Assembly: GCA_008080745.1 (NCBI GenBank)
Contig: SHMX01000003.1
Span: forward strand, 30,001 to 62,000
DNA: 32,000 bases
Direction of reading: 5' to 3'
Source: Candidatus Thorarchaeota archaeon
GTDB lineage: Archaea > Asgardarchaeota > Thorarchaeia > Thorarchaeales > Thorarchaeaceae
The notes under the pieces are model-generated. The model had not been told where the DNA came from, ran no database searches, and worked only from the letters and a program-made list of their open reading frames with translations. Below, in pieces: positions 408 through 17,339 of this stretch. Made by a program: the position numbers and the translations under genes. Each line of letters starts with the position of its first letter. Position 1 is the stretch's first letter.

Positions 408-1412
408 CTAGCTATCATCTTCTAATGGTGAGAACTGCACTATTGCCCAAGTGATATCGGTTGAAATAACTGGAAGACCATCAATCCCAATATCAAAGAT
501 CTCGCTTGAAACAGTTGGTTCTACCGACGAAACATCTTCAAACAGGATTTGAGTTTCAAGCAATGGTGAAGACATGGATAGTAATCGGTTCTTGAATCCG
601 AATTCCATATTGTGTTCTATGAGAACATCTGCATTGGCATCTCCATTATCTGGAAAGAAAAATGTAAGAAAGTAAGCTACACCACCAAGACATCTTACCA
701 ATTCATTGAGAAATTCTTCACTACTGGTTATATTGGTCAATCCCATATTGGTCGTAATGACCTCTACTGATTTTTCTTTGAAAGGCATCTTTCTAGCATC
801 AAATGCAATAAGGCTTACTTTCTCATAGATACCGAAATGCTCCAATCTATCCTTATTTCTCTGAAGAATACTTGGACTGATATCACTCAAGATGACAGGA
901 TTTTCCAATTCAGAGAATAATTCAGCGAATCCACCCATTCCAGATGCAATATCAATAATGACGCCTGTTTTATCAGAGAGTAATTTTTGTAGCTGTGTTT
1001 TCTTTTCTTGATATGCTTGAGTATAAGAACTAGTATATAGGTCCCTCACGGCTTCAGCTCTAATTTCTCTTGCAGTATCATAGTCTCCTCGCTCATCAAG
1101 AATCATTGAATGTAAGAGTTTGTCTGCGGGATTCAAATTATCCAAATCAGTTTGCATGAGTTTTCGTTCATATTCAGGATTGCTACGCAATGCCTTTGAT
1201 AGATTACTTTGCACAACTTTCCAAAAATCTTCATCATTTGATGCATCTAAAAGAAAAATAGCAATACCATTCTTTACAAAATAAGATTTATGACATGCGA
1301 TACAAGAAACCTCAGCATCAATAATCCGATGATCTGTTTCTTTTTGAATATCCCATGCTAAAGAATCATGACAGATAGGACAATAAAGCAAATTTTGAAT
1401 AGATTTTAGCAT
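408..1412 (-). CDS. Class I SAM-dependent methyltransferase with N-terminal Trm112-like zinc-finger domain
   Basis: N-terminal LYCPICH...VSCIACHKSYFVKNGIAIFL is Trm112-like; SAM motif I is IIDIASGMGG, followed by SDISPSIL and AFDARKMPF. Start moved to ATG 1412 (MLKSIQNLL); the 30-aa extension in the ORF track is AT-rich and looks intergenic. Confidence 0.85.
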   Translation of the reverse strand: MLKSIQNLLYCPICHDSLAWDIQKETDHRIIDAEVSCIACHKSYFVKNGIAIFLLDASNDEDFWKVVQSNLSKALRSNPEYERKLMQTDLDNLNPADKLLHSMILDERGDYDTAREIRAEAVRDLYTSSYTQAYQEKKTQLQKLLSDKTGVIIDIASGMGGFAELFSELENPVILSDISPSILQRNKDRLEHFGIYEKVSLIAFDARKMPFKEKSVEVITTNMGLTNITSSEEFLNELVRCLGGVAYFLTFFFPDNGDANADVLIEHNMEFGFKNRLLSMSSPLLETQILFEDVSSVEPTVSSEIFDIGIDGLPVISTDITWAIVQFSPLEDDS

Positions 1413-1558
1413 GAATATCAAAGATTGAAGATATTCGAAATCTAAAATAGATTTACAACTAAGCAAAATAAAGAAAATAGCCCATTCTATTTTAGAAAAC
1501 AATTCAGTAATTCACTCGTAAAGATTAAGAGGGCTCGTTAATAATTCTAATTTGAGAT

Positions 1559-1929: not shown

Positions 1930-3771
1930 ATGAGTATGAGAGAAAAATTTCAGAAAGTCAGAAATGATAAGCTGTTCGATGAAATAAAAGAACATATGAT
2001 AATGGGCCAATTTAAAGACGCACTTGAGAAAATTGATCTTCTCGATTTACAGTACCATTCAGATGCAGAAAAGGCAAAACTAAGAATTAAAGCATGGGAG
2101 ATAATGTGCATCACCCGCCAGGGGAAATATCAGGAAGGTCTGCAACTTGCAGATGAGTTCCTCCAATCTTACAATGATGAAGAGCTATACAAAGAACCTA
2201 TTCTGGATATTATAATTGCAAAATCATACTCATTTAGTGCACTTGGTAAGATTGATGAAGGTTTAGAAATGTGTAGAAAGGCAGAAGAGATACTCAAGAA
2301 TCTCGACCTGACTACACGAGAGAATCGAGCTCGTCTGGCAAGTGTCTTGACTATTCAGGGATTGAATGCACTTCACCAAGGAGATCTCGACCTAGCAATA
2401 GAGATCTATTCACAAAGCTATCCAATATTGGATGAGCTGGGAAATAAAAAGAGCGCTGCTGCAGCACTGCATAATATTGGTAGCACATATAGAGTCATGG
2501 GATACCTTGACCGAGCTTTAGAATATGTCGAGATGTCTAGAGCAATATCTGAGGAAATAGGATATACTCCAAATCTGGCAGGTGCATACACAACAACCGG
2601 AATCATACTCTATCAAAAAGGACGCCTTAAAGAAGCTGCAGATAGTCTTGAAAAGAGTCTTGATATGTTCGGAGAGATTGGGCATAAGGTATACCTTGCG
2701 AGAGGATTATACTACGCAGTAATAATCGAGGTAGCTCAGAAAAATCTGGAACGTGCAGAAGAGTATCTTTTCCAAATGGCATCGATAAATGACGAGCTTG
2801 AGAGTCTACTCATCAGTCAACATTATCGAGTAGCTAAAGCTATCTGGCTTAAGGCAAAAGCAGATCCCGTATCACTCCAACAAGCACAAGAATTATTCGA
2901 TTGTGTTGTCGATGAAAAAATTACCTTCTTCGAAGTGACATTTCAATCGCTCCTTAGCCTTAGTGATCTTCTAATAGACCAAATGAAAAGATCCGAAAGT
3001 GAGAAAGATATAGCAATCATTAAGGAATATACTGAGATAGCACTTGAGTTAGCAACAAGTCAAGGTTCACACTGGCTTGAGGCGGAAACATATTGTTTAC
3101 AGGCACAGATTGCATTGGTTGAACTTGAGTATGAAGAAGCCAAGAAGCTTCTTACAAAAGCCCAATTGATTGCAGATGAAAGAGGTCTATATCAGCTTGC
3201 TAGACGAATCTCTAATGAATTCGATGAGCTACTTAGGAAGGAAGAGAGATGGACAGAGATAAGCAAAAAGGGTGCGACATTTTCTGAGAGAGTAGAGATA
3301 GCTCAGATAAATGAACGAGTAGAACGGATGGCAAAGATTCAGGAAGCTGTTCCTCTACAAGAATCTAAAGATCAGCCAATTCAATTCATGCTTCTCTCAG
3401 CACACGAAGGATATTGTATTGTTTCTAAAGAGTTTGAAACTACATTCAAAGTAGACGAGTCTCTTGTGAGTGGCTTTCTAAGTGCTATTACCAGTTTTAG
3501 CGACGAGGTTTTTTCGTTGCCTCTTGACAGAATCAAAGTTGGTGAGTTTATACTTCTGTTTAGAGCAATAGTACCATTCCTATTCTGCTATGTCTTCAAA
3601 GGAGAATCATATTCAGCGTTAAAAAAGGTTGAACAAATTATCGAATATATACAACAAGATGAAGACCTATGGAGTTCACTGGAAGACACAATAGATACTG
3701 GAAAACAGAATACTCTTGTAAATCAACAGATACAAAGAATGGTTACAGAAGTTTTTCAAATGACTGGTTAG
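1930..3771 (+). CDS. Tetratricopeptide-repeat protein with C-terminal longin/roadblock-like domain (Asgard type)
   Basis: TPR helices (AAALHNIGSTYRVMGYLDRALEYVE, AGAYTTTGIILYQKGRLKEAADSLE). The C-terminal domain has LVSGFLSAITSFSDEVF followed by beta strands, the pattern of longin-like domains common in Asgard proteins. Confidence 0.8.
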   Translation: MSMREKFQKVRNDKLFDEIKEHMIMGQFKDALEKIDLLDLQYHSDAEKAKLRIKAWEIMCITRQGKYQEGLQLADEFLQSYNDEELYKEPILDIIIAKSYSFSALGKIDEGLEMCRKAEEILKNLDLTTRENRARLASVLTIQGLNALHQGDLDLAIEIYSQSYPILDELGNKKSAAAALHNIGSTYRVMGYLDRALEYVEMSRAISEEIGYTPNLAGAYTTTGIILYQKGRLKEAADSLEKSLDMFGEIGHKVYLARGLYYAVIIEVAQKNLERAEEYLFQMASINDELESLLISQHYRVAKAIWLKAKADPVSLQQAQELFDCVVDEKITFFEVTFQSLLSLSDLLIDQMKRSESEKDIAIIKEYTEIALELATSQGSHWLEAETYCLQAQIALVELEYEEAKKLLTKAQLIADERGLYQLARRISNEFDELLRKEERWTEISKKGATFSERVEIAQINERVERMAKIQEAVPLQESKDQPIQFMLLSAHEGYCIVSKEFETTFKVDESLVSGFLSAITSFSDEVFSLPLDRIKVGEFILLFRAIVPFLFCYVFKGESYSALKKVEQIIEYIQQDEDLWSSLEDTIDTGKQNTLVNQQIQRMVTEVFQMTG

Positions 3772-4188: not shown

Positions 4189-6006
4189 TTATTCCGCTCT
4201 CGGGAGCCAAATTATGAACTCGGTACCTTTTGTATAATCTCCTTCAACACGATTGTTAACATCAATTGTACCACCATATTTCTGTACCATATGTTTGCAT
4301 AAGTGAAGATCTACACCACCATATCGACGGGAAATATCAAACAGAGCTTCTTTTCGTTGATCGGGTATGCCAATACCATTATCTGAGATGCTAATGCGAT
4401 AACCATCATTGAACTCAAAGACTTGAATCCATACACGTTTGGATTCAGAAACGTTATGCTTGATAGCATTCTCAATCAGCATTATGAAGAGTTGTTCCAA
4501 TAGTGCATCTCCTACAATATTAGCTCGAGTATAATGTCCTTCTATTTGGATAGAAACTTCACCATATTTTGATTGGATATGATTGATTGTATTAGCGAGG
4601 GCAATATCCAATTGTCGTATAGCAATAGGATTAGATGTCAAAGATTCTGTTAGAGTCATTTTCGTAAGGAGGTCTCTACATTCTGCGATAGCATTCTCAG
4701 ACTCAATGATCAAGTTATCATGCTGTTCTCCTGTAGTCTCACGGGTTATGAGGTTCATGCAGGCAATTATGACTTGAAACTTGTTCATTATATCGTGCCC
4801 AATCAAATCGAGATAGAGAACTGCACGGTCCTTTGATTCCTCTAGACTTCTAACCATCTTATTGAGACTAATTGATAATGTCTTTAGTTCGGTAGTACTA
4901 TATTCAGTAATCTCGTGGTCAAGAACACCTTGAGAGATAATTTGCGCATCCTCTGCAATCTTATGAATTGGTTTTGTTAGTCTAGATGTCCCGAAATATG
5001 TGATAAGTGAAGTAAAGAAGAAAGTGACAATTCCCAGAAGTATATGATATCCAATTAGACTTGTTAGTTGATTGCTGATGATGGTGGTAGTATAGACCAA
5101 TTCGATTACAAAATCAACCGATTCGGTGGGATAATCGCCATTTGTCAGACTCAGAAATATGTATTTTGTAAGAGTATTCGAGGTTATGTTGGAAACGGTT
5201 CGGTCTTGTTCTGTGTCACGGACATCAAATACAATTTCCAATAGAGAGTTCGAAGGATGAAAACTTGTATCTCCTAGAAGATCTCCAAAAATGGAAAAGA
5301 TACGTATTGATTCTAGAAATGAATTGCCAGAAACAAATTCATCTGCTGCATGTAGATAGCTTAATTCACTCGTGAGTTCAGAAAATTCATCTATCACTAA
5401 GCCCAATTCAAACACGTATTGTCGGTCGGGACTTGGCATATATGCGTAAATTCTAACATCCCCTGTCTGAATTTCAGGAGAAACCCGATCCAGAGTAAAA
5501 TTACCCTCAAGTCGAATTTGGGTAAGTTGTTCATAAAAGGAACATGAGAAATCACTAAAATTTAGTCCCAAATCTGGTGCATAAGTTGTGGAAATAATAA
5601 TACCGTCACAATCAATAATATACAAATCGTATGTCTTATTCAATATCTCATAGACCTTTGTGAGATTCATATCTTCAACATTACGACCAACGTCCTCGTA
5701 TTCAGAAATGAAATATTGAAAACCATCAAGCATATCTGATTCGTAATTTTTTCCGATGGTGTTTAATCCAATGTCTACCAAATTGAAAGTAGTTTCAATA
5801 TCTTGCTCTATTTGATTCTGCATGAGCTCATGACTACGCTCAAGATTGACCTTTGCAGTATTGTAATCAGAATAGGATATGAAACTAATAAGTGGAATAA
5901 TCAAAAGCAGAATAGCTAAAGTCAATTGAATTTTAAATGACCGTTTTTTAAGGAAGTCAATCACATTTGACAATTTATCTGCCTCAAATGAAATATTCTT
6001 GTCCAT
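4189..6006 (-). CDS. Membrane sensor histidine kinase (TM - extracellular sensor - TM - HAMP - HisKA - HATPase)
   Basis: Two TM helices flank a ~290-aa loop. HAMP (LTKPIHKIAEDAQIISQG), H-box (LIGHDIMN), N-box (LIENAIKHN), G1 (DNGIGI), G2-like YGGVDL. Confidence 0.9.
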   Translation of the reverse strand: MDKNISFEADKLSNVIDFLKKRSFKIQLTLAILLLIIPLISFISYSDYNTAKVNLERSHELMQNQIEQDIETTFNLVDIGLNTIGKNYESDMLDGFQYFISEYEDVGRNVEDMNLTKVYEILNKTYDLYIIDCDGIIISTTYAPDLGLNFSDFSCSFYEQLTQIRLEGNFTLDRVSPEIQTGDVRIYAYMPSPDRQYVFELGLVIDEFSELTSELSYLHAADEFVSGNSFLESIRIFSIFGDLLGDTSFHPSNSLLEIVFDVRDTEQDRTVSNITSNTLTKYIFLSLTNGDYPTESVDFVIELVYTTTIISNQLTSLIGYHILLGIVTFFFTSLITYFGTSRLTKPIHKIAEDAQIISQGVLDHEITEYSTTELKTLSISLNKMVRSLEESKDRAVLYLDLIGHDIMNKFQVIIACMNLITRETTGEQHDNLIIESENAIAECRDLLTKMTLTESLTSNPIAIRQLDIALANTINHIQSKYGEVSIQIEGHYTRANIVGDALLEQLFIMLIENAIKHNVSESKRVWIQVFEFNDGYRISISDNGIGIPDQRKEALFDISRRYGGVDLHLCKHMVQKYGGTIDVNNRVEGDYTKGTEFIIWLPRAE

Positions 6007-6091
6007 CAGAATGATTATTATGAATTATAATACATAACTGATGTTTTATTATTTTAATATACTAGAGGAAGGAAGACAGCTATTAAAGACT

Positions 6092-6550
6092 TCAGTTTTC
6101 TAAGGTGGTTTGCGGGCTGTAATCTGATTCATCTACTTCAAGTGTGCCTAAAGAAGTACTCTCGTCCAACGAATGCATGACGGATAGTCCACCTGCTATA
6201 AAGAGTGCTGCTCCTGTGCCCCAAGAAGTTAGAAAGAGAGCGTCAGAAAATGTAGCAGAACCTTCAAGGATGGGCATAATTAAAGCAGTGATGAACATCA
6301 TTGTTACAATTACCACTGATACTGCCAACATGGTTGGTTTTATCCTACTTCTTTCAGGTTTCAGATAACCAACAAATGTAAAAATTAGAATTAATGGTGC
6401 AGGAAGCAACCAAGAAAGGAAAGACACTCTTGCTAATACGTATCCAGGATTTGCTAGTTCTAGATAGAGAAAGTTGAAAAAATACGCACTAAGCAATAAT
6501 ATGCCGAGCCAGAGAATGCAATATGGTTCACTGTCCTCACGTAGTTTCAT
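6092..6550 (-). CDS. Hypothetical 4-TM membrane protein with acidic C-terminal tail, probably co-transcribed with the FAD-NuoB gene
   Basis: Hydrophobic ORF starting 0-10 nt after the upstream stop (6560-6562); a GGTGA SD-like motif precedes ATG 6550. Confidence 0.7.
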   Translation of the reverse strand: MKLREDSEPYCILWLGILLLSAYFFNFLYLELANPGYVLARVSFLSWLLPAPLILIFTFVGYLKPERSRIKPTMLAVSVVIVTMMFITALIMPILEGSATFSDALFLTSWGTGAALFIAGGLSVMHSLDESTSLGTLEVDESDYSPQTTLEN

Positions 6551-6559
6551 TATCATCAC

Positions 6560-8500
6560 CTATGAAATAATCCCAAGAGCATCTTGGTTCTCATTCTTCA
6601 TCTGCCAGTGAGTGGTCCCAGCTCTGATCTTATTCTGGAGAATAAGATGAGCACGAATGAAATCTGATGGTTTTGGTGGACAACCGGGTAGATAGACATC
6701 CACAGGTACAACCTTATCCGGAGGAGTAACTAGAGAATATCCATCCCAGAACAAACCACCACTTGCAGCACATTGTCCGAAAGAGATAACGAATTTTGGT
6801 TCTGGCATCTGTTCGTAAATTCTTCTTAATCGGGGTGCCATTTTCTTAGTCAGACTTCCAGAAATCCAAAGTACATCAGTCTGACGTGGACCAAATAGAG
6901 GAAGCATTCCAAAGCGTTCCACATCCCAACGAGAAGCAACACCAGCTGCTCCATCAACCATACAACAACCAAGACCATATTGGATTGGCCATGGGCTATG
7001 GGCCCGACCCCAACGGAGAAGCCATTTAATAGGAGGTACATTTTGGAGCCATTTGAGAAGAATTGGTGCAATCCTACCAAAACCATTTCGAAGGAAATCA
7101 AAAGCTACCCACATGAAATATTTTCCAATGCGTAGGATAAATGGCAGCCAGTATGCGAAAATTTTTCCTGGATTTGAAATTTCCTTAGGATCATATTTCA
7201 GCTTCGCACTTCGAATCCGACTGAGTCTTTTCTTTCCAAAATACTCTGCGGCATAATTGGCAAACCATATTCCCGTTGAATGTGCATGTCCACCATGGCG
7301 TTGTGCAATTTTGAAAATGACAAAACTTTGAGACCATGATAACATATAGAACCGACGTCGCTCATCCTCAAGAAAATAGCCCATCATGGTAACTCCTGAT
7401 TTGGACGTGACATAGCCATCCACACCAGCCTTAGCCGATGCCTGTTCGAATTGAAAATCATCAAGAATAGCATGGAGATTTTCTAGAGGTGCAAAAGCCT
7501 GACCAACAACTAAAGTAGGTCCTGCTTTCTTTATCTTCATTGGATAGAAACGTTCTTCCCATTCGTGTTCAGCTACATGACGGTCATATATGGTACCTTT
7601 GTATTCCTCAACAACATTACGAACTATTCTAAGCCCAGCCTCTCGATCTTCATTACTTCCGTCGAATGCAAATAGCACTACGCAATGATGAACCGGATAT
7701 GGGAAAGGTGTATCTTTATCCCAGATTTTCTTCTTGAGATCAACATACTTGCTCTCTTTGAATTTAATAGTATGAGGTAGTGGTGCTTCTTCTATTATCT
7801 TCTCTATTGCCATGTTCATAAGATAATTTTCTGGGAAACTTGCAACGATTGGGTCGATGGGTGTAAGTTTCTTAGCTTTGATTCTTATCTTTGTGATGAT
7901 TCCAAGAATACCCTCTGTATCACAGAACAACTCACGTTCTTTGGTCTCGATGATTCTACCATTTGGGAGTACCACTTCAAACTCAAGAACACTGTCATTA
8001 ACTAATCCGTATTTCAACGAGCCAATACCATCTCCACCCTGAGCAACCCACCCACCAACAGTTGCTGAAAGACCTGATGAAGGGTAGCAACGAAGGTCCA
8101 AACCATGACGGTTAAGATGATGCTGAAGATGCGCCCAAGATATTCCTGGTTCGGTAATCACCCATTCTTCTTCCTCGTTTATCTCAAGAACACGATTCAT
8201 TTCTCGCATATCAACAATGATTCCGCCCTTACGAGGAATAGCTCCACCATAGCCAGATGTCCCAGCTCCACGGGGAACAAGGGGAACCTCCTCTTCGTTA
8301 GCAAATTTGTAAAGAGCCTTTACCTCTTCTGTAGTAACAGGCCTAACAAGAGCGTCAGGGTTGTTGTTCATCAGCCAACCAACCTGTTTAGGTAGAGACC
8401 CCACATCCTGGGAATGAACTATCAATTCGTGTTTAGCAGTGACCAATCGATGGTTGAATATCGCCTTGAGTTTCTCAAGCTGCTTTTCCTTCAATCCCAT
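6560..8500 (-). CDS. FAD-linked oxidoreductase (VAO/PCMH, GlcD-like fold) fused to a C-terminal NADH-quinone oxidoreductase subunit B (NuoB/Nqo6) domain
   Basis: FAD-binding motif PDALVRP...LVPRGAGTSGYGG and family C-terminal motif KYDPKEISNPGKI. Then RWGRAHSPWP...GLGCCM...PRQTDVL...KMAP...YEQMPEPK...GQCAASGG...VPVDVYLPGCPP, the NuoB signature. One uninterrupted 646-aa frame. Confidence 0.92.
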   Translation of the reverse strand: MGLKEKQLEKLKAIFNHRLVTAKHELIVHSQDVGSLPKQVGWLMNNNPDALVRPVTTEEVKALYKFANEEEVPLVPRGAGTSGYGGAIPRKGGIIVDMREMNRVLEINEEEEWVITEPGISWAHLQHHLNRHGLDLRCYPSSGLSATVGGWVAQGGDGIGSLKYGLVNDSVLEFEVVLPNGRIIETKERELFCDTEGILGIITKIRIKAKKLTPIDPIVASFPENYLMNMAIEKIIEEAPLPHTIKFKESKYVDLKKKIWDKDTPFPYPVHHCVVLFAFDGSNEDREAGLRIVRNVVEEYKGTIYDRHVAEHEWEERFYPMKIKKAGPTLVVGQAFAPLENLHAILDDFQFEQASAKAGVDGYVTSKSGVTMMGYFLEDERRRFYMLSWSQSFVIFKIAQRHGGHAHSTGIWFANYAAEYFGKKRLSRIRSAKLKYDPKEISNPGKIFAYWLPFILRIGKYFMWVAFDFLRNGFGRIAPILLKWLQNVPPIKWLLRWGRAHSPWPIQYGLGCCMVDGAAGVASRWDVERFGMLPLFGPRQTDVLWISGSLTKKMAPRLRRIYEQMPEPKFVISFGQCAASGGLFWDGYSLVTPPDKVVPVDVYLPGCPPKPSDFIRAHLILQNKIRAGTTHWQMKNENQDALGIIS

Positions 8501-8672
8501 TGCTAGACCTCTAGAAGATTTGGTTAGGAAACAACAGACTAATTCCGTACATAAAAAGTTAGCGAGTGATACAAAACGAACATGATAGTTATTTCCTCTT
8601 TCGAATACGTTAAAGATATTAGATACAATAGAAAAAAGAAAGATTATCTCCGCATTGTTAAAATGAATAGGA
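8501..8672. promoter_or_regulatory. Divergent promoter region shared by the FAD-NuoB gene and the CCG Fe-S gene
   Basis: 172-bp AT-rich gap between head-to-head genes, with TATA-like tracts (e.g. TTAAAGATA near 8610). Start sites cannot be determined. Confidence 0.4.
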
Positions 8673-9905
8673 GTGAAACGAATGGAATTTCCATCTCTAA
8701 AAGAACGTGGTCTAGATATTCACGCATTCACATGTGCCCAATGTAGCTTCTGCCAAGTTGGGCATGGAGCATGTCCCACCTACAAGGTGAAACGTGTAGA
8801 TAGCTATTCAGGAAAAGGAAAGATGCTGATAACTAGAGCTCTAGCTCAAAAAAGAATTAGTAAGGAAGAGGGTCTCGAAGGATTACGTGATGGAATATTT
8901 GGATGCACACTCTGTGGTGGATGTGAAGAAGTTTGCCAAGTAGATATTCCATTCATTCAAATATACCAGTTGATGCGATCAGACTTCAAGGATATGGGGA
9001 TGTGGCCCGAAGGTCTTGGTGATGCGAAAGCTATGCTCATGAAATCAAGAAATATTCAAGGCCAACCACAGATGGATCGAATTGAGGGATGGTCTTATTG
9101 GCATCCAGAGGAAGATTACCTACTTGATCGTGAAGGTGTAAAAAGTAAGACGGCAATTTTTTTGGGTTGTGCCTCATCCTTCAAAGCGGTACCAATTCAG
9201 GCTTCAATTGCAACAGCCATGATAATGGAGAAGATTGATGAAGAATTCACCATGCTTGGAGAAGAGGAATGGTGTTGTGGGGCCCCCCTCATAATGACAG
9301 GGGATTTCGAAGGAGCTAAAGAGTTTGCCCTTCATAATATTCGGAAATACAAAGAATTGGGAGTTGAGAGAATCGTCACTAATTGCCCCGGATGTTATAA
9401 GATGTGGGCTCATGAATACCATGAGTTTCTAGATATAGATCATGAGTTCGAAATAATATATGGTGCAGATTTCTTCATGCGACTGATTGACGAGGGAAAG
9501 ATGAACAATATCAGTAGCGATTACGAGGCCACCGTAACTTTTCATGATGGGTGCGATGCTGGACGAAATGCAGGATTCTATGAAGAACCTAGAAAAGTAC
9601 TTGAAAATCTCCCAGGGGTCACGTTTGAAGAGTTACCCCATAATAAAGCAAATTGTTATTGTTGCGGTTCGGGTGGAGTTCTGAGAGCTTTTGACAACGA
9701 ATTCGCACTTCAGATTAATGAGTTAAAAGTGGAAGATATTGAACAGACAAATACCGATATCGTAGTTTCCATGTGCCCATCATGTGTTGACTTTATGCAT
9801 GGTCAGCTACCTGTAGCCGGTTCCGAAAAGGCCTCGATGGATTTGGCTGTAATCATAGCAAAATCTCTTGGTCTTGAATGGGAGGGATTGGACGAAGTAT
9901 ATTAG
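8673..9905 (+). CDS. Fe-S oxidoreductase, GlpC/GlcF/HdrD-like (2x[4Fe-4S] domain plus two CCG domains)
   Basis: CAQCSFC...CP and CTLCGGCEEVC ferredoxin-type motifs; CCG domains EEWCCG...CPGC and HDGC...CYCCG...CPSC. Start GTG 8673 or ATG 8682. Confidence 0.9.
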   Translation: MKRMEFPSLKERGLDIHAFTCAQCSFCQVGHGACPTYKVKRVDSYSGKGKMLITRALAQKRISKEEGLEGLRDGIFGCTLCGGCEEVCQVDIPFIQIYQLMRSDFKDMGMWPEGLGDAKAMLMKSRNIQGQPQMDRIEGWSYWHPEEDYLLDREGVKSKTAIFLGCASSFKAVPIQASIATAMIMEKIDEEFTMLGEEEWCCGAPLIMTGDFEGAKEFALHNIRKYKELGVERIVTNCPGCYKMWAHEYHEFLDIDHEFEIIYGADFFMRLIDEGKMNNISSDYEATVTFHDGCDAGRNAGFYEEPRKVLENLPGVTFEELPHNKANCYCCGSGGVLRAFDNEFALQINELKVEDIEQTNTDIVVSMCPSCVDFMHGQLPVAGSEKASMDLAVIIAKSLGLEWEGLDEVY

Positions 9906-9906
9906 T

Positions 9907-11001
9907 TCAATCCATGAATAATTTAATGCTAAATAGTGGTCCAATGAAAATAGTCAGAAGAAGCGCAATCTCCCAGGGTAGCATAAGGCCCAGCATAAGA
10001 TAAGCAATACATAGTAATATGCCAGTAATCATGTGATTTTGAATGGTGCCTACATTAGCAGAAACAAGTTTTGGTATGGTATCAAAATTTGTAAGAGTCA
10101 CTATTGAGCATTTGATAGCAAGTGGAATCGTAATCAATGCGAGAAGAGTATGGAGATGTACATACCCTAGGAGCATTCCAATTATCAGAAAGATATAGGT
10201 AGCAAACATGATTAGACTGTATCCAATCGAGGCTTTTTTTCTGCCAAGTCTAACAACTAGAGTCTTCTTTCCAGCATCACGGTCAGCATCATGATCGGGA
10301 AATTCGTTGATGTAGAGAACCCCCATGATTAGAAAGGCGATGGGTAATGAAGCGATGATGGGTTCTATTAGAGCTTGGAGGAGAAGGAATGGAATTGATA
10401 GGAGGGGTTCAAGGAGGATACTTTGAACAGAATAAGGATATTGAACATAGTATGCACCGATTACCATTAACGTACCAAAATTCAGAGCAATAAAAAACTC
10501 ACCGAATCCGCGTGTCACGAGCTTGAAAGGAGGAGCGGTGTAGAAGAATCCAGAACCAACTCCAATGACTCCAAGCAGTATTATGAAAATACCCAATTGT
10601 AAGAACAGATAGATTCCAATCAGGGCTCCGATTACAAAAAAGACTAAAGAGCCAATTAATACCTCACGCGCTGAAAGAAACCCTCTTTGAATCATTCTAC
10701 TACCCCCTGTAAAGGGGCGTATGAATTCTTTGTTAATATCGTCTGATCCAGTCAGGTCTTCGCTATGATCAAAATAATCATTGGAAACATTAGCTCCTAT
10801 ATGAAGACAAATACCTGCAATTAATGTTAGGAGAAAATAGTCCAATCGAAACACCGAATGCAATCCCCAGGCAATAGCAGACCCTAGTAAAATTGGAATA
10901 GTAGATGCTGTAAGAAATGGAACTCTTAGCTCTATTAACCAAGCTCGGAATTTACCAGGATTCATTTTATCCTGAACTGGAATCGATTCGTCTTCGGTCA
11001 T
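9907..11001 (-). CDS. menA: 1,4-dihydroxy-2-naphthoate polyprenyltransferase (MenA, UbiA superfamily)
   Basis: NVSNDYFD, FYTAPPFKL..RGFGE and NEFPDHDADRDAGKKTLVVRLG motifs; multiple TM helices. Start reassigned to ATG 11001 (or 11010), because the longer ORF overlaps the divergent gene. Confidence 0.85.
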   Translation of the reverse strand: MTEDESIPVQDKMNPGKFRAWLIELRVPFLTASTIPILLGSAIAWGLHSVFRLDYFLLTLIAGICLHIGANVSNDYFDHSEDLTGSDDINKEFIRPFTGGSRMIQRGFLSAREVLIGSLVFFVIGALIGIYLFLQLGIFIILLGVIGVGSGFFYTAPPFKLVTRGFGEFFIALNFGTLMVIGAYYVQYPYSVQSILLEPLLSIPFLLLQALIEPIIASLPIAFLIMGVLYINEFPDHDADRDAGKKTLVVRLGRKKASIGYSLIMFATYIFLIIGMLLGYVHLHTLLALITIPLAIKCSIVTLTNFDTIPKLVSANVGTIQNHMITGILLCIAYLMLGLMLPWEIALLLTIFIGPLFSIKLFMD

Positions 11002-11120
11002 AAGAAACATGCATCCAAATCCAATCCAATAGAAAAGATTTGCCCCAGAACGAATTTGGTCCAGAATCGCAAGTGCTAATAAGTTAATTTTTCTACAAGC
11101 ACTATCACGGAGGAGCTCTC

Positions 11121-12191
11121 TTGGAGGAAAAACCCAAAGACTTGATGAAAGGTATACCAATAACTGATGGTGAAAAACTGATCAGGGATAACCAAGAAGA
11201 GATTATACTAAAGGAGTCCTTCAAGAAACTCTATAGACATCCAGCATTAGTCGAAAGAGTTACTAGAATTGAAAAGAGCATTCAGGATTTTATCAGAAAT
11301 AATGATGGTCAACCACAAATTCTCTATGATGCGGCCAACCACTTGATTCAAGCAGGAGGTAAGAGAACGAGGTCGCTTCTCTCTTTGCTCGCCTGTGAAT
11401 CAGTGGGTGGCGATACGGAAAAAGCCCTACCTCTTACAATAGCAGCTGAATTATTGCAGACAGCTTCATTGATTCATGACGATATCATTGATGCGGGGAC
11501 AACTCGAAGAGGGGTCGAAACAGTCCACCAAAAATATGGCCATCATATAGCAATCTTAGCAGGAGACCTCCTAATTGCAAAGTCAATAGAAATGATTGGT
11601 AAACATGGCTCAACCGAGCTTCTACAGCACATTGGAAATGGCGGTGTCAGGATGTGTGAAGGAGAGGCAATCGATCTTGCCCTAAGTACAGATAAGCCAG
11701 ATGTATTCTCAAAAGATCAATATTTCAAAATGATTGAACTAAAAACCGTCGCATTTCTTAGTGAATCAGCAAGGCTAGGAGCCATGATGGGAGAGGGAAC
11801 AGAAGATCATGTGGAGGTTCTATCCGAGTTTGGAGAACATTTGGGATATGCATTCCAGATTCAAGATGATATGCTTGATATGAGAACAACCCATGAAGAG
11901 AGCGGCAAGGTTCCTCTTGCCGATTTAAAAAGTCGAAGATGTAATTTCCTCTTGGTCCATGCGTTAGAGGTTTCACACCAGAGCCATATAGACACCATCA
12001 ATCAAGCGATAAATGAAGGTAAATTCTTTGATGCCGCAGAATATATTTTAGAAACTGGTGCAGAACAGGTAGCAATGGATTTAGCTGAAGGTTATGTGAA
12101 AAAGGCAAAAGAAACTCTATTACAAAGTAACCTAAGAGGCATAGACTTGCTCAATGAATTTGCAGACTCTGTAATTCACCGAAACCGTTGA
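11121..12191 (+). CDS. All-trans polyprenyl diphosphate synthase, probably medium/long-chain
   Basis: GGKRTR, FARM TASLIHDDIID..RRG, GEAID, KT, SARM FQIQDDMLD. TTG start preceded by GGAGG. Confidence 0.9.
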   Translation: MEEKPKDLMKGIPITDGEKLIRDNQEEIILKESFKKLYRHPALVERVTRIEKSIQDFIRNNDGQPQILYDAANHLIQAGGKRTRSLLSLLACESVGGDTEKALPLTIAAELLQTASLIHDDIIDAGTTRRGVETVHQKYGHHIAILAGDLLIAKSIEMIGKHGSTELLQHIGNGGVRMCEGEAIDLALSTDKPDVFSKDQYFKMIELKTVAFLSESARLGAMMGEGTEDHVEVLSEFGEHLGYAFQIQDDMLDMRTTHEESGKVPLADLKSRRCNFLLVHALEVSHQSHIDTINQAINEGKFFDAAEYILETGAEQVAMDLAEGYVKKAKETLLQSNLRGIDLLNEFADSVIHRNR

Positions 12192-12199
12192 TTTTGAAC

Positions 12200-13393
12200 C
12201 TAATTAAGAATCCTCGTTAAAGGAATTAGAATTTTTGACCCAAGCTTAACAGCAAAAGGCAATCTACATCTAATCAATGATTCAAGCAGATATGGACCAG
12301 CAAGGCTCATACAGATATGTGTTACAATATCATTAGACAGTACTGAATCTGCGATATTCCTAACAGCAACAGCTGAGCTAAGTGTTTGTCCAATCTCTGA
12401 GGTCCACCTTAGGGCATAATCTGATAGCGGAGTGGATTTCGAAAAGTGATCTAGTATTGTTTCTGCTGCTATCTCTCCACCAATAATAGCCGTTGGAATT
12501 CCCCCACCATTTGACGCCATAACATGACTTGCCGCATCACCCACTAACAGAACATTGTTACTAAAGGTGCGGCCAACGGGACCTCCAATAGGTATTAGCG
12601 CAGAAACTCTTTGTTCAATTTCTCCACCTCTCATAAGAGGAGATATCAGAGGATTGTGTTTCATGAGATGCTGCAAAAGTACTCGCAAAGGAGTATTGAA
12701 CTTGTTGAAGTGTTGTCTTAGACCGAGTCCAAAATTTACTCTCCCATCTCCTTTAGGGATAATCCACGCATATCCACCAGGCGCTATTTGCTCACCAAAA
12801 TACATCTCGGTAACATCAGGATTACAATGAGTGTTCTTTACCACGAATTGAATAGAGTGACTAACAGCAGAAGAATCTAGGATGTTACCAATGGAACGGG
12901 ATATCATCGAATTGGGACCGTCTGCACCTACTACAACCCGCGCTGAAAGTGTTCGAGTGCTGTTTCCTTTTCTGATTTTCAGTTTGTTCGAAGAAGACCT
13001 TTTTGCAACACTAGAATCCAGATATAATTCAGCACCAGAATCAATGGCTTCGTCTACCAGATGTTTGTCATACAATTTGCGATCAATAATGTTTGCTTTG
13101 AATCTGAATCGAGTTCTATTACCAAAAGGAGAAACCAGATGTGTCCAATAAGTCTGGTTTGTTACAAATCGTGAAGGAATGCAAGCAATTCTCTTAGCTC
13201 TTGATGAATAAGGAAATAGATCCGCACATTCTGTAGATGTTGGAAAATATTCACCACATTGGATTGGAACCCCGATTGTCTTTCTTCTCTCTATAAGTGC
13301 TACATGTAAACCATTCTCAGCTAACATGTGAGCTACGGTACTTCCTGCAGGACCTGCACCGACAACAGCAACGTCGTAATCAGTGTCTCGCAT
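12200..13393 (-). CDS. Geranylgeranyl reductase family flavoprotein (GGR/MenJ-like)
   Basis: VVGAGPAGS FAD motif, QCGE, PGGYAWIIPK, LVGDAA..V..SNGGGI. Confidence 0.9.
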   Translation of the reverse strand: MRDTDYDVAVVGAGPAGSTVAHMLAENGLHVALIERRKTIGVPIQCGEYFPTSTECADLFPYSSRAKRIACIPSRFVTNQTYWTHLVSPFGNRTRFRFKANIIDRKLYDKHLVDEAIDSGAELYLDSSVAKRSSSNKLKIRKGNSTRTLSARVVVGADGPNSMISRSIGNILDSSAVSHSIQFVVKNTHCNPDVTEMYFGEQIAPGGYAWIIPKGDGRVNFGLGLRQHFNKFNTPLRVLLQHLMKHNPLISPLMRGGEIEQRVSALIPIGGPVGRTFSNNVLLVGDAASHVMASNGGGIPTAIIGGEIAAETILDHFSKSTPLSDYALRWTSEIGQTLSSAVAVRNIADSVLSNDIVTHICMSLAGPYLLESLIRCRLPFAVKLGSKILIPLTRILN

Positions 13394-13420
13394 GAAGGGC
13401 CTCCAAAGAACTCAGAAATG

Positions 13421-13771
13421 TTACCATTTTTCGGAGAAAAATACTAGCCAAGCAACAACAGCCTCAAGATTGCTTAAGATTAATTCATCCAGTCTGAATA
13501 AAGTAGAACCACTCGAGGTCGATATATAATCTGATCCCAAACGAAATCTAGTGGAACCAGAGGAACTAGTAACAGAAGAATTACTGTATCTCCCAATGGT
13601 ACTACCGGATGAATTGGTAACATACCCATCTCGGACTCTGCCAATAGTGCTTCCTGAGCTACTCATGACTGAGCCAGATGAGAATCTTCCAATGGTGCTT
13701 CCTGACGAATTGGTGATGTAATCACCTCGAACATAACCAATTGTAGAACCACTACTGTTCATTATTCTCAT
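13421..13771 (-). CDS. Ser/Gly-rich tandem-repeat protein resembling 5-fold beta-flower repeat proteins
   Basis: Six 16-aa repeats with an [IV]x[NST]SSGST core and a hydrophobic C-terminal helix (LEAVVAWLVFF). Confidence 0.7.
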   Translation of the reverse strand: MRIMNSSGSTIGYVRGDYITNSSGSTIGRFSSGSVMSSSGSTIGRVRDGYVTNSSGSTIGRYSNSSVTSSSGSTRFRLGSDYISTSSGSTLFRLDELILSNLEAVVAWLVFFSEKW

Positions 13772-13904
13772 AGTAATCTAGATTAACCAGTCATAAAAGG
13801 ATATGAGTGTACCTACATGACATTTTGATAGCTGGAAATGTATTTGTAGCAGTTAGAAACAAATCAAAATACTACATAGCTTGAATGAGTAGTGGAGAGA
13901 TATT

Positions 13905-16505
13905 GTGAAAAAGCACACCCCTATGCAAAGACAATATTTGGAACTTAAGAAACAGTACAAAGACTGTATTCTTCTATTCAGACTAGGTGATTTCTATGAG
14001 ATGTTCAATGAAGATGCGAAGAAAGCTAGTGAAACGCTTGAAATCGTTCTTACCGCCAGGGGTGAAGGTATAGACAAATGGCCTATGTGTGGAGTTCCAT
14101 ATCATTCAATTGAAGGGTATATTGCAAAATTACTGGAAGCAGGATACACAGTTGCGATTGCAGAACAAGTTGAAGATGCCTCCAAAGCAAAGGGCCTAGT
14201 TAAACGAGAGGTTGTTCGAGTAATAACACCCGGTACCATTCTGGAGAGCTCAATGCTTGAAGATAGCTCTAATAATTATCTGGTTGCCGTGATAGAACAC
14301 GACCAACAAGTGGGTATTGCATCAGTGGATGTTTCAACGGGTGAATTTGTTACTACACAATTTCCGGGAACCCTACTGGGTGAGAAAACAATCAATGAAT
14401 TAGGAAGACTTGGTCCTGCTGAGTTGCTTCTCCCAGAATCAGCTATGGGGTCTCAAAGTGTTATGCAAGCTTTTGAACCACTGGAAACAAAGATAACCTT
14501 CCGAAGTGATCTGGATTTCTCAGCACGTCAATCTGAACAGCGATTGAAAGAACAGTTCAATGTGACAACACTGGATGGGTTTGGGCTAATAGAAAAAGAG
14601 GTAGCTATTGGAGCGGCTGGTGCGGTTCTAGCTTATTTGCATGACGTGTACAAAGAGAACGTAATCACTCTCACTGGTGTTAGGACATATTCTGTTGAAA
14701 GACACATGATTGTTGACAGGACTACTCAACGAAATTTAGAGCTTCTAAAGAACGCACGAGATGGATCGAAAAGAGGAACACTTCTGAGTGTTCTATCTAA
14801 GACTGTCACGCCTATGGGACGTAGGTTGCTAAAAAAATGGATACTTCAACCATTGATGGATATTGACGAAATAAATGAAAGACTGGATGCAGTGGAAGAG
14901 TTTGCAAGAAGTGCAATCGACCGACAAGAAACCATGAATAGTCTATCAAATCTTGGAGACCTTGAGAGAATAACAAGCAGAGTTGTTTTTGGGACTGGAG
15001 GAGCTCGAGACCTAGTCGCTCTTCGAAATGCTCTATCAAGAATCCCTAAAATTAAGAAAAAACTGAATTCATGCAAAGCAGATTTAGTCTACAAGTTATG
15101 CTCAGATATTGACCCATTAGAATTTTTACATGAAACATTGGAAAAAGCACTGATTGATGATCCACCTGTAAGTATCCGAGAAGGAGGGATGATTAAGGAA
15201 GGATTCAGTGAGGATTTGGACAAGCTGAAGCAGGGCATATCGGATGATAAAAAGTGGATTGCTTCATTGCAGGTTAGAGAACGAAGAAGAACTGGAATCA
15301 AATCACTCAAAGTTGGTTTCAACAAGGTCTTTGGATATTATATTGAAGTCACAAAAGCAAACATAGACAACGTTCCTGAGGAATATGAAAGAAAACAAAC
15401 CTTAACCAATGCAGAAAGATATATCATTCCCGAGCTCAAGGAAAAAGAAGCAAGTGTTCTGGCGGGAGAAGAAAAAATCAACCAACTTGAATATCGAATC
15501 TATGAAGACCTAAGAGCATTAGTAAAGGAGAGGGTTGACGCTCTGAGAAAAAATGCAGATGCCATTGCAAAGATTGATGTTTTGGCATCACTTGCAGAAG
15601 TGGCTGTTCTTAGGAAATATCACAGGCCAGAATTAACAAAAGGAAAAAGAATCAAAATTATTGATGGGCGACATCCTTCATTGGAGATGATGCTAGGGCC
15701 AAATGAGTTTGTACCAAATAGTCTTGAGATCGGCGATGGGGGAGCTACTTTACTCATCGTTACAGGGCCAAATATGGCTGGAAAATCAACCTATATGAGA
15801 CAGACTGCAATAATTGCACTACTAGCACAGATGGGAAGCTTTACTCCAGCAAAGGAAGCAGAAATCGGATTGGTTGATAGAATATTTACTAGAGTAGGTG
15901 CTTTTGATGATCTTACCGCTCGACAGAGTACATTCATGGTGGAAATGGTAGAAACAGCAAACATTCTGAACAATGCCACTGAAAGAAGTCTTGTCATTCT
16001 GGACGAGATAGGTCGAGGTACATCGACTTTCGATGGAATGGCACTCGCTTGGGCAGTAGCGGAACAGATAGTCCAAATAAAATGTCGAACCCTCTTTGCC
16101 ACACATTTTCATCAATTGACTGATATGGCATCATCCTATCATGGTGTGAAGAATGTACACACTTTAGCACGTGAAACGGGAAACACCATTGTGTTTCTTC
16201 ATAAGGTTGTGGAGGGAGGTACAGATAGAAGTTACGGAGTTCATGTCGCTTCATTAGCAGGTGTGCCAAACTCTGTTGTTCGACGTGCTCAACAACTTCT
16301 TATAAAATTAGAAAAAGAGAGTACCTTGGAACTTGGTAAAGGTATGGAGGATGCAGAAGAGGCAATTCAAACCAGTCTTGAGGCTCTAACAATTGATGAC
16401 CCAATTGTCGAACGAATTAAACACCTAGATCTTGACCGTATGACACCAGTTGATGCCTTGCTCAAACTTAAAGAAATGCAAGAAGAAGCTAAAAAACGAA
16501 GCTAG
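13905..16505 (+). CDS. mutS: DNA mismatch repair protein MutS (MutS1 type)
   Basis: HTPMQRQY, FRLGDFYEMF (Phe-X-Glu mismatch motif), Walker A GPNMAGKST, Walker B DEIGRGTST, HTH SYGVHVA. Confidence 0.97.
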   Translation: MKKHTPMQRQYLELKKQYKDCILLFRLGDFYEMFNEDAKKASETLEIVLTARGEGIDKWPMCGVPYHSIEGYIAKLLEAGYTVAIAEQVEDASKAKGLVKREVVRVITPGTILESSMLEDSSNNYLVAVIEHDQQVGIASVDVSTGEFVTTQFPGTLLGEKTINELGRLGPAELLLPESAMGSQSVMQAFEPLETKITFRSDLDFSARQSEQRLKEQFNVTTLDGFGLIEKEVAIGAAGAVLAYLHDVYKENVITLTGVRTYSVERHMIVDRTTQRNLELLKNARDGSKRGTLLSVLSKTVTPMGRRLLKKWILQPLMDIDEINERLDAVEEFARSAIDRQETMNSLSNLGDLERITSRVVFGTGGARDLVALRNALSRIPKIKKKLNSCKADLVYKLCSDIDPLEFLHETLEKALIDDPPVSIREGGMIKEGFSEDLDKLKQGISDDKKWIASLQVRERRRTGIKSLKVGFNKVFGYYIEVTKANIDNVPEEYERKQTLTNAERYIIPELKEKEASVLAGEEKINQLEYRIYEDLRALVKERVDALRKNADAIAKIDVLASLAEVAVLRKYHRPELTKGKRIKIIDGRHPSLEMMLGPNEFVPNSLEIGDGGATLLIVTGPNMAGKSTYMRQTAIIALLAQMGSFTPAKEAEIGLVDRIFTRVGAFDDLTARQSTFMVEMVETANILNNATERSLVILDEIGRGTSTFDGMALAWAVAEQIVQIKCRTLFATHFHQLTDMASSYHGVKNVHTLARETGNTIVFLHKVVEGGTDRSYGVHVASLAGVPNSVVRRAQQLLIKLEKESTLELGKGMEDAEEAIQTSLEALTIDDPIVERIKHLDLDRMTPVDALLKLKEMQEEAKKRS

Positions 16506-16514
16506 AAATTATAT

Positions 16515-17327
16515 GTGTTATATCCAATAAAATCTCAAATGATGGTCCATGAGAGGGAACAAGATAGACGACTCAAAACTATAACTGCTACATGTTGCCT
16601 AGGCTTCATAGTCATAGTTCTAATTGGGGTATTCTTCATTGATACGGATGATTATTTTCAGGGATATCTTATGTTGATTTGTCTGTTTGGGTTTCTTGGA
16701 ATTATTGGTCATCGCTGCTATAGGTCCTTAGTGATACCTCAACTTGATAAAGACAAGCTTGAGAAAGCGGGACCATACCTTCAAGGGAAAACTGTATGGT
16801 CTAGTGAAGTCATTCATGCACCACTCACTCGTTCAGATATCAAATATATTCTAAAACTATCCAAGAATGAAGACAAATATGGAATTTTAAAAAAAGGGGA
16901 AAAAATTGAGGTAATTCTTGAAATAGACACTGAAACAATAAATCTGTTTTCTGACAAGCGAAATCTGGATGCCTATTTGTATTATAGAATTGAGGAGCAT
17001 GAACGATTATGGCGGTTAATCAAGAGAACAGTAGTAATTGGGATAGTATGGTTTGGGGTCCTATATATTATTTTGACTCCACTCTTTCAGCATCCTATTC
17101 TCTCAATCCTTAATTTCTATGGCACTCTAAAAGTTCTTGTCGCTATATGGACATTTTTGCCTATAGCATATCTTATGTGGAGATACCACTTTGCTTCATT
17201 TGACTTTAGTATCTATCTAAATTATACAGAATTTATTGATGTGTTAGAAAGCTTGAAAGTTAGTGCTAAGACAAAATATGAGAAGAAAAAATTACAGAGT
17301 AGAATCAATAATCTTAGAGAAAAATAA
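16515..17327 (+). CDS. Hypothetical membrane protein (2+2 TM around a soluble loop)
   Basis: 270-aa ORF 9 nt after mutS with four hydrophobic helices; no family recognised. Confidence 0.65.
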   Translation: MLYPIKSQMMVHEREQDRRLKTITATCCLGFIVIVLIGVFFIDTDDYFQGYLMLICLFGFLGIIGHRCYRSLVIPQLDKDKLEKAGPYLQGKTVWSSEVIHAPLTRSDIKYILKLSKNEDKYGILKKGEKIEVILEIDTETINLFSDKRNLDAYLYYRIEEHERLWRLIKRTVVIGIVWFGVLYIILTPLFQHPILSILNFYGTLKVLVAIWTFLPIAYLMWRYHFASFDFSIYLNYTEFIDVLESLKVSAKTKYEKKKLQSRINNLREK

Positions 17328-17339
17328 CAGAACCCGACC

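Follow-up and report, generated by a model that had tools for sequence, protein, structure and literature searches.

A gene fusion in a Candidatus Thorarchaeota archaeon joins a flavoprotein to NuoB, a subunit of respiratory complex I, and very probably provides the NuoB (N2-cluster) subunit of a complex I-type ion pump that has no NuoEFG and whose remaining subunits are encoded in a nearby operon without nuoB. The gene lies within the 32,000-nucleotide stretch of DNA analysed here, hereafter the window (GenBank assembly GCA_008080745.1, contig SHMX01000003.1, positions 30,001 to 62,000; G000:C3:30001-62000). The fused flavoprotein and an iron-sulfur protein resembling HdrD, encoded beside it, would together form a flavin/iron-sulfur module tethered to this headless pump. 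We hold this architectural core with high confidence. The fuller statement, in which the module also acts as a dehydrogenase and feeds electrons to the pump, is in our view probable on balance.

The fusion gene and its parts

The fusion protein (P0001) comprises three parts: a flavoprotein of the VAO/GlcD fold (residues 1-447), an amphipathic tail (448-494) and a near-complete NuoB domain (495-646). The corresponding features, in window coordinates, are as follows, FAD being flavin adenine dinucleotide.

6560..8500, minus strand: whole fusion gene, 646 aa, flavoprotein plus amphipathic tail plus NuoB (open reading frame (ORF) and translation, domain profiles, orthologs)
7943..8359, minus strand: FAD_binding_4 domain, residues 48-186, with the PRGAGTSGYGG loop kept (Pfam, 1.6e-40; invariant columns)
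7160..7810, minus strand: FAD-oxidase_C cap domain, residues 231-447 (Pfam, 1.6e-09)
7019..7159, minus strand: amphipathic helical tail or linker, residues 448-494 (hydropathy, hydrophobic moment, unfused orthologs in genus g14)
6563..7018, minus strand: NuoB domain of complex-I type, residues 495-646 (NCBIfam, PDB matches, tree)
6962..6967, minus strand: tandem Cys512-Cys513 codons, invariant among fusions
6770-6772, minus strand: Cys577 codon
6680-6682, minus strand: Cys607 codon

An initial annotation had described a single 646-aa ORF with an FAD module, an amphipathic linker and NuoB, and the ORF call, Pfam, NCBIfam and hydropathy agree on it. The same annotation called the NuoB domain complete, which is nearly so: PRK06411, the NCBIfam NuoB subfamily model (180 bits; cut-off 116), aligns residues 493-630 with profile positions 26-163 of 166, and the N-terminal ~25 residues of NuoB are replaced. 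Oxidored_q6 (PF01058) is found at residues 523-617 (E 9.9e-24; 83.9 bits against a cut-off of 27), and TIGR01957 scores 172.5 bits on the NuoB domain against a cut-off of 142.7. Cysteines 512, 513, 577 and 607, singled out beforehand as characteristic of the NuoB part, are the only ones past residue 480; they lie in the motifs GLGCCM, FGQCAASGG and PGCPPKP and are unchanged in 16/16 aligned fusion orthologs. Searches of the PDB place the domain closest to NdhK, PSST and Nqo6 (~1e-43), ahead of MbsJ (2e-30), MbhJ (3.5e-27) and HycG (3e-24). By these sequence criteria the fused NuoB domain is of the complex-I rather than the hydrogenase type, and it carries the four ligands of a putative N2-type [4Fe-4S] cluster.

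The linker is amphipathic and not transmembrane (maximum Kyte-Doolittle value 1.23, high hydrophobic moment), with helices predicted at low confidence by AlphaFold2 at residues 452-472, 474-487 and 491-501. In the AlphaFold2 model of the whole fusion, which rests on an 18-row alignment of near-identical sequences, the flavoprotein half is usable and the NuoB half has a predicted local distance difference test (pLDDT) score below 50.

Distribution and integrity of the fusion

The 646-aa architecture recurs in more than 45 protein clusters (90% identity clustering) from NCBI, JGI, ENA and Logan, which are 72-79% identical to the query and whose named members are labelled Thorarchaeota. Of the 87 genomes of the class Thorarchaeia, all of which were searched, 51 have the fusion at full length and free of stop codons, and about ten more have contig-end pieces. 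Every class genome that bears it belongs to genera g1-g12, across which it is 72-90% identical over its whole length. Two 47-kb Logan contigs with depths of 43 and 119, assembled independently from two marine-sediment runs that possibly stem from the very sample behind this genome, span window positions 6000-10000 with zero differences, indels or joints. Misassembly is ruled out by these clusters, genomes and contigs, which include assemblies across the junction where the initial annotation had suggested read mapping, and no evidence was found for an artefact of assembly or gene calling joining two genes, an explanation whose probability we regard as negligible. In one genome, the fusion is read in two overlapping frames covering residues 1-435 and 428-645 (G024:C5:93253-95186), by a frameshift, a sequencing error or secondary fission.

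A search for longer proteins containing this NuoB domain, also suggested by the initial annotation, found the combination of PF01565 with PF01058 confined to this clade. The remaining long NuoB proteins either combine B with C, D or both, or have repeat tails of an unrelated kind. Three of the latter (P0124-P0126) were considered as kin of the fusion and rejected: their C-terminal extensions are Ala/Pro-rich repeats with no other Pfam domain.

A complex I-like operon without nuoB

The complex I-like operon (A-J-K-C-D-H-I-M'-L-M-N) lies on the minus strand of the same contig at G000:C3:18501-29876 (locus L019 6501-17876). It comprises 11 tightly packed genes, namely nuoA, nuoJ, nuoK, nuoC, nuoD (377 aa), nuoH and nuoI, followed by four antiporter-like genes that encode, in order, proteins of 510 aa, 731 aa (NuoL-type), 505 aa and 508 aa. 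Every core subunit other than NuoB was found in these 11 genes, so the check for a separate nuoB in the nuo operon that had been called for ended with an empty slot. Both nuoA and the fusion are on this strand, the start of nuoA being ~6.7 kb away from the stop codon of the fusion. The initial observation that no nuoA, nuoC or nuoD gene adjoins the fusion is correct inside the window; nuoA of this operon, however, lies 124 bp before window position 1.

The genome, which is 98% complete, encodes four other Oxidored_q6 proteins, all with CxxC (CNGC, CYGC, CAGC and CWGC), and the contrast drawn earlier between the tandem cysteines of complex I and the CxxC of hydrogenases therefore holds within it. 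One of them is part of a cluster on contig C11 with the order A-B-C-D-H-I, whose large subunit (P0122) has the motifs RICGICSATH and DPCFSCTDR and whose small subunit has CNGC; to judge from these motifs, the cluster encodes a genuine group 4 [NiFe] hydrogenase. Its NuoB-like gene was considered as the missing subunit of the C3 operon and rejected on its CNGC motif and its own complete A-B-C-D-H-I operon with a [NiFe] large subunit. The remaining three are group-3-type hydrogenase small subunits. Since all other Oxidored_q6 genes are CxxC hydrogenase subunits, the fusion is the sole complex-I-type NuoB of this genome. The notion that the fusion docks on a complex I-like core by replacing its NuoB is thus right in that it supplies NuoB to such a core, and wrong in that there is no resident NuoB to replace. 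NuoF-family and FpoF/FrhB-family genes were not found in the genome either. Three more Proton_antipo_M genes at G000:C5:159985-164420 (L021) may belong to an Mrp-type antiporter or to the membrane arm of the C11 hydrogenase.

The NuoD protein of the operon (P0121) contains ERLCMLE and finishes with DPYPGWWDR. Neither the L1 (RxCGxCxxxH) nor the L2 (DPCxxC) motif of hydrogenases is present, and all Ni-Fe ligands are lost; the His of the beta1-beta2 loop is retained (GPQHVSAHG).

Among the 87 class genomes, orthologs of this NuoD (73-92% identity) are restricted to the same 12 genera as the fusion, and genera g13-g17 have neither. The two genes are nearly always on one contig and one strand, about 3.2 kb apart, and in most relatives the fusion heads the nuoB-less operon. 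In genome G010, for example, the fusion, a small membrane-protein gene, nuoA-J-K-C-D-H-I and four antiporter-like genes form a single co-directional cluster. A Ras-family small GTPase gene lies just past the last antiporter-like gene of that operon (L036 4772-5380, plus strand). In genus g1 only, represented by this genome and G026, ~6.7-10 kb of unrelated genes separate the fusion from the operon.

The ~6.7 kb of unrelated genes that part fusion and operon here would suit another explanation put forward in the initial annotation, in which the protein is a stand-alone membrane-attached dehydrogenase whose own N2-type cluster reduces quinone without any complex I-like core. The gap is, however, confined to g1, the fusion co-occurs strictly with an operon that is otherwise without NuoB, and in solved complexes N2 lies at the NuoB-NuoD interface (textbook knowledge). 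Given this co-occurrence and synteny, we consider a stand-alone enzyme very unlikely.

Origin of the fusion

Both halves of the fusion exist apart in living relatives, since genome G397 has a relocated NuoB and genus g14 an unfused flavoprotein. In a genome of the sister family (G001) and one of another Asgard family (G101), the operon has the same unusual order with a free nuoB between nuoK and nuoC (J-K-B-C-D-H-I), whose product is 46-47% identical to the fused domain. In G397, which has a 51% identical NuoD, the nuoB slot is empty, leaving a 48-bp gap between nuoK and nuoC, and a free 186-aa NuoB with tandem cysteines is encoded on another contig (L046 1513-2073, minus strand; G397:C168) beside a HypD-like hydrogenase maturation gene. 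In the NuoB tree, the fused domains constitute a single clade (support 98/99), to which the G397 protein is sister (90/89). G397 has a second NuoD copy, 51% identical, on contig C31, near which no further nuo gene was detected.

The unfused flavoprotein orthologs of g14, a genus without a complex I-like operon, are 498-499 aa long and 56-58% identical to the fusion, and they already possess the amphipathic tail. They align up to residue ~494 and end in ...PPLKW(I/L)RN, where the W-x-R-x-x-S-x-W-P helix of the fusion's NuoB starts. The tail thus appears to have been inherited from the ancestral flavoprotein. A likely history is that nuoB, first resident in the operon (as in G001 and G101), moved out of it (as in G397) and was then fused.

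The flavoprotein domain

The FAD_binding_4 and FAD-oxidase_C fold of the N-terminal part is that of GlcD and the D-lactate dehydrogenases. Its closest PDB sequence match is LctD of the Ldh-EtfAB complex (2e-28), and its closest fold is mouse LDHD, a D-lactate dehydrogenase (template modelling (TM) score 0.77 by target), with AGPS close behind. Family models score far below their cut-offs: 144.7 against 567.9 bits for GlcD (TIGR00387), 93 against 897 for PRK11230 and 95 against 1350 for YdiJ. Membership of the GlcD or D-lactate dehydrogenase families was ruled out on these scores and on missing catalytic motifs. The cap domain carries the blocks EW..R..PM..K..GP and DE, invariant in the subfamily, and the FAD-binding loops and many cap residues are unchanged down to paralogs of 33-37% identity. 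Relatives of 34-39% identity are fused to Fer4 and CCG domains in ~900-aa bacterial proteins. The flavoprotein belongs to a separate, uncharacterised VAO/PCMH subfamily whose members habitually act together with CCG proteins.

In G010, four further, paralogous pairs of HdrD-like and VAO-flavoprotein genes lie beside the nuo operon and extend up to a MenA-like gene (L037, G010:C1:1496001-1516000, ~4900-19540). Within this 'dehydrogenase island' are PNPOx-like genes as well, along with a DUF7530 gene and one resembling amine oxidases.

The HdrD-like partner

The gene next to the fusion encodes the presumed partner.

8673..9905, plus strand: HdrD/GlcF-like protein, 410 aa, with two [4Fe-4S] ferredoxin motifs and two CCG domains, divergent from the fusion (Pfam CCG twice, 7.3e-33; Fer4_8)

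Its invariant residues are C21/24/27, C78/81/84/88, C201-C202-G203, C238/241, C330-C331-G332 and C368/371. The best NCBIfam matches are TfrB and LdhH, all Hdr, Tfr, LdhH, GlpC and GlcF models scoring below their cut-offs. Orthologs (62-90% identity) occur only in genera that bear the flavoprotein, where they adjoin its gene; in g14, the HdrD-like gene immediately precedes that of the unfused flavoprotein, and both have the same orientation.

An interaction between the two proteins is suggested by the Rosetta-stone argument, because relatives of the flavoprotein are fused to Fer4 and CCG domains. When residues 1-500 of the flavoprotein were modelled together with the HdrD-like protein, the interaction prediction score from aligned errors (ipSAE) was 0.87, 0.88 and 0.88 in three runs, compared with 0.00 for the best of 3 controls. 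The mark used is reached by 58/80 solved complexes and 2/110 mismatched pairs, counts that are approximate here, our own alignments having been used. The runs share >=96% of contacts, and the partner has a pLDDT of 89. The predicted interface sets the partner's first Cys-cluster motif against the FAD loops and the FYPM.IK..GP and DER blocks, which are largely invariant across the subfamily. These predictions support binding of the HdrD-like protein to the flavoprotein domain of the fusion.

A 35-37% identical HdrD-like paralog has one in-frame TAG (TGA or TAA in some genomes) inside the match in many independent genomes (for example G017:C122:2661-3830, G030:C17:6396-7562 and G011:C16:54795-55967), which could reflect recoding (selenocysteine or pyrrolysine) or a conserved split.

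Genes for a possible prenylated carrier

Beyond the HdrD-like gene lie three genes with possible roles in making a prenylated compound, the second and third of which are tied to the module by position only.

9907..11160, minus strand: MenA-like UbiA-family prenyltransferase, 417 aa (NCBIfam MenA models up to 147 bits, below cut-offs)
11121..12191, plus strand: polyprenyl diphosphate synthase, IdsA/GGPPS-like (Pfam polyprenyl_synt, 1.3e-61)
12200..13393, minus strand: geranylgeranyl-reductase-family flavoprotein (TIGR02032, 233 bits, above cut-off)

A UbiE/MenG-like methyltransferase is encoded further off from the HdrD-like gene. Synteny of the MenA-like gene with the genes for the HdrD-like protein and the flavoprotein is kept in many genomes, g14 included; since the gene is found throughout g1-g15 and is lacking in g16 and g17, it is not specific to the pump. 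That the MenA-like enzyme makes a prenylated electron carrier of the membrane is plausible, and this syntenic gene together with the NuoD site hints at a hitherto unknown acceptor or carrier.

Direction of electron flow

We propose that the membrane-surface flavoprotein and the HdrD-like protein would form a ~95-kDa module permanently tethered beside the acceptor pocket of the pump. An organic substrate, probably 2-hydroxyacid-like, would be oxidised at the FAD. Its electrons would be taken up by the ferredoxin-type clusters in the HdrD-like partner and go on to the NuoB/NuoD site, either directly from cluster to cluster or by way of a prenylated carrier that the MenA-like enzyme produces. Ion translocation by the membrane arm would be coupled to this transfer, possibly in reverse, so as to lift electrons to ferredoxin. 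A dehydrogenase role is favoured because VAO/GlcD-fold enzymes with CCG partners have such a role. A donor direction is further suggested by the closest solved relatives, LctD and mouse LDHD, which are substrate-oxidising D-lactate dehydrogenases, and by the several paralogous flavoprotein/HdrD-like pairs that cluster beside the G010 operon, as a set of dehydrogenases would.

Several observations weigh against this proposal. The motifs HxGDGNxH and GEHG, which we take from solved LDHD and D2HGDH structures to be the metal-binding and catalytic His-His-Glu motifs and which are also visible in the LctD alignment, were absent from the query and all 120 nearest homologues in a motif scan; the positions aligned to the LctD triad motifs read ...TSKSGVTMMGY... 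and ...GGHAHSTG.... Their absence is a family trait rather than decay, because it extends across the subfamily, unfused and Fe-S-fused members included. The residues that ligate the quinone head group are His38 and Tyr87 of NuoD (T. thermophilus numbering), and the operon NuoD has Met at the position of the Tyr (RLCM, aligned to RWDY of NdhH and RICV of MbsL). Its best PDB match is MbsL (6e-58), narrowly ahead of NdhH and Nqo4. The site of this NuoD is neither of the hydrogenase type nor of the canonical quinone type. A canonical naphthoquinone-ring pathway was not found in the genome by the families searched, which is no proof of its absence: PF02621 had no match, MenB matched at crotonase level only (164 against 343 bits) and MqnC gave 32 bits, below its cut-off.

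The energetics and geometry raise further difficulties for a donor. The 2-hydroxyacid/2-oxoacid couple stands at about -190 mV (lactate), and transfer from such a donor to an acceptor at the level of menaquinone provides too little drive for a four-antiporter pump running forwards. With the module as donor, reverse operation of the pump, towards ferredoxin, is therefore a possibility. In complex I structures, the N-terminus of NuoB is at the membrane, near the heel of NuoH and NuoA and away from NuoI; a direct wire to N2 is for this reason not evident. A module at this location would adjoin the acceptor channel and not NuoI, which fits either carrier-mediated scheme. AlphaFold2 yielded no usable interdomain geometry for the whole fusion from its 18-row alignment. 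Finally, ferredoxin docking on NuoI is possible as the real source of electrons.

The last point leads to the opposite reading, in which the module is an output: ferredoxin on NuoI drives the pump, and electrons leave N2, directly or via a carrier, for the HdrD-like/flavoprotein module, whose CCG clusters would reduce a disulfide, or whose flavin a 2-oxoacid, as soluble acceptor. The system would resemble a hard-wired Fpo-methanophenazine-HdrDE chain, or the ferredoxin:heterodisulfide oxidoreductase proposed to consist of the Fpo-like complex and HdrD in Methanomassiliicoccales. By textbook potentials, a span from ferredoxin to an acceptor at -140 to -190 mV suits a four-antiporter pump better than the donor scheme does, and NuoEFG-less Asgard complexes are generally assumed to be driven by ferredoxin. 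The HdrD-like protein keeps all its CCG cysteines, with TfrB and Hdr-type proteins as best family matches, while NuoD is without the quinone Tyr and the families searched revealed no pathway for a quinone ring. The idea of an Fpo-like complex with HdrD is, moreover, already published, in the passage of PMC6147122 that cites Lang et al., 2015. However, the VAO/GlcD-fold flavoproteins characterised so far mostly oxidise their substrates, and no heterodisulfide-forming pathway was found, none having been searched for. In this enzyme family, energy is coupled at the NuoB/D/H pocket; coupling there by a peripheral reductase would be unexplained, and the unfused pair of g14 also works without any complex I-like operon. 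We therefore regard an output module as possible, if doubtful.

The missing D-lactate dehydrogenase triad would also suit a reading in which the flavoprotein domain is not catalytic and serves as a scaffold, membrane anchor or assembly factor of an ordinary ferredoxin-driven headless pump, its amphipathic tail merely anchoring NuoB. Against this, the FAD loops and cap residues are invariant down to 33-37% identity, the fusion is 72-90% identical across 12 genera, the HdrD-like protein is conserved along with it and, by prediction, docks at the side of the FAD, and the absence of the triad is subfamily-wide; we consider such a role distinctly improbable.

A bolder extension of the donor proposal would make the fusion a respiratory supercomplex by gene fusion, in which a flavoprotein/HdrD-type dehydrogenase, held at the acceptor channel, and the pump share an undescribed prenylated carrier from the MenA-like enzyme and the pump uses ion-motive force to run in reverse and move electrons from the 2-hydroxyacid level to ferredoxin and on to H2. 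This is rather unlikely; if true, it would constitute a new dedicated reverse-electron-transport machine for syntrophic Thorarchaeia, archaeal relatives of eukaryotes.

A small membrane protein and other genes of the window

Immediately downstream of the fusion lies the small gene mentioned above.

6092..6559, minus strand: 155-aa membrane ORF of no known family, abutting the fusion's stop codon, with three strongly hydrophobic segments

It has zero Pfam or NCBIfam matches, and a search of the ESM Atlas was uninformative, giving merely unnamed clusters with scores <=0.90 and TM <0.5. A homologue (30-70% identity) is found immediately downstream of the fusion in 12/12 relatives sampled and was not found beside the unfused flavoprotein genes of g14; the small membrane ORF, the fusion and the operon NuoD share the same 12 genera. 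The protein is probably an extra subunit or anchor.

The following genes lie between the fusion and the operon in g1.

408-1502, minus strand: methyltransferase, Trm112-like/UbiE-MenG-like
1930-3771, plus strand: TPR protein
4189-6006, minus strand: HAMP histidine kinase

The intervening HAMP histidine kinase could regulate the nuo operon. Elsewhere in the window, positions 13905-16505 (plus strand) encode a full-length bacterial-type MutS1 (NCBIfam, 1052 bits) in what is an Asgard genome, and a 1009-aa ORF at 18401-21430 (minus strand) coincides with a peak in GC content (0.495 at 20001-21000, compared with ~0.40 elsewhere in the window).

Comparison with known systems

Complex I-type pumps swap their electron modules, which include NuoEFG, FpoF, the ferredoxin-binding Ndh subunits and formate or CO dehydrogenases. 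The present system behaves as one more member of the modular superfamily that unites complex I and group 4 hydrogenases. The fusion is apparently a previously undescribed way to attach a redox enzyme to a respiratory pump. No description of a flavoprotein-NuoB fusion was found in the literature searched, in which coverage of subscription journals is limited, and reviews of archaeal fusions name NuoB-C(-D) only; protein and literature searches thus agree with the earlier statement that no characterised protein of this architecture is known. The gene fusion provides direct genetic evidence for a flavoprotein/HdrD-type module on NuoB of a headless archaeal pump, and it bears on the open question of how headless archaeal complexes are fed or emptied. 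A stoichiometric and conserved complex of this kind should suit cryo-electron microscopy and enzymology, and its Asgard host makes its energy metabolism relevant to models of eukaryogenesis and to syntrophy in marine sediments.

The NuoB part resembles NuoB, Nqo6, PSST and NdhK in its near full-length match (~1e-43), its tandem-Cys, Cys and Cys-Pro ligands and the company of nuoA/C/D/H/I/J/K and L/M/N-type genes. It differs from them in having a flavoprotein and tail of 494 residues in place of the N-terminal ~25 residues, and whereas nuoB of relatives occupies the slot between nuoK and nuoC, the fusion gene lies outside it. The known NuoB fusions found in our search have NuoC and/or NuoD as their only partners, in contrast to the flavoprotein here.

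The eleven-subunit headless pumps, namely Fpo/Fqo of archaea, the Fpo-like complexes of Methanothrix and Methanomassiliicoccales, and cyanobacterial NDH-1 likewise have no NuoE/F/G, a core of A-D and H-N, and an exchangeable module. For the Fpo-like complex of Methanomassiliicoccales, partnership with HdrD has been proposed (PMC6147122, where it cites Lang et al., 2015), itself a hypothesis only; here, the HdrD-like protein is predicted to sit on the NuoB-fused flavoprotein. In contrast to these complexes, the Thorarchaeia module is covalently attached to NuoB and includes a VAO-fold flavoprotein, FpoF was not found, there is one extra antiporter-like subunit and NuoD is without the quinone Tyr.

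With GlcDEF, enzymes of the Dld-II/LdhH type, YdiJ and LctD, the flavoprotein shares the FAD_binding_4 and FAD-oxidase_C fold and the pairing or fusion with a Fer4 and CCG protein. It is set apart from GlcD-type dehydrogenases by its score (145 against an equivalog cut-off of 568 bits), the lack of His-His-Glu motifs, the amphipathic tail and the fusion to NuoB.

MbsL, of the MBS/MBH complexes of P. furiosus, which are among the pumps derived from group 4 hydrogenases, is the best solved match of the operon NuoD, and both keep only the first Cys of L1 (RLCM and RICV, respectively). NuoB here, however, is clearly nearer to its complex I counterparts than to MbsJ or MbhJ; the motif at the NuoD C-terminus is devoid of Cys, and the membrane arm has a long NuoL-type subunit and the gene content of complex I.

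The Fpo-methanophenazine-HdrDE chain of Methanosarcina also combines a complex I-type pump with an HdrD-type reductase, the two being joined there by a prenylated carrier; here the carrier is hypothetical and the MenA-like gene syntenic. Unlike in that chain, cytochrome b of the HdrE type is lacking (only one His occurs in the 155-aa ORF), a flavoprotein is present, and the enzymes are tethered to each other by gene fusion.

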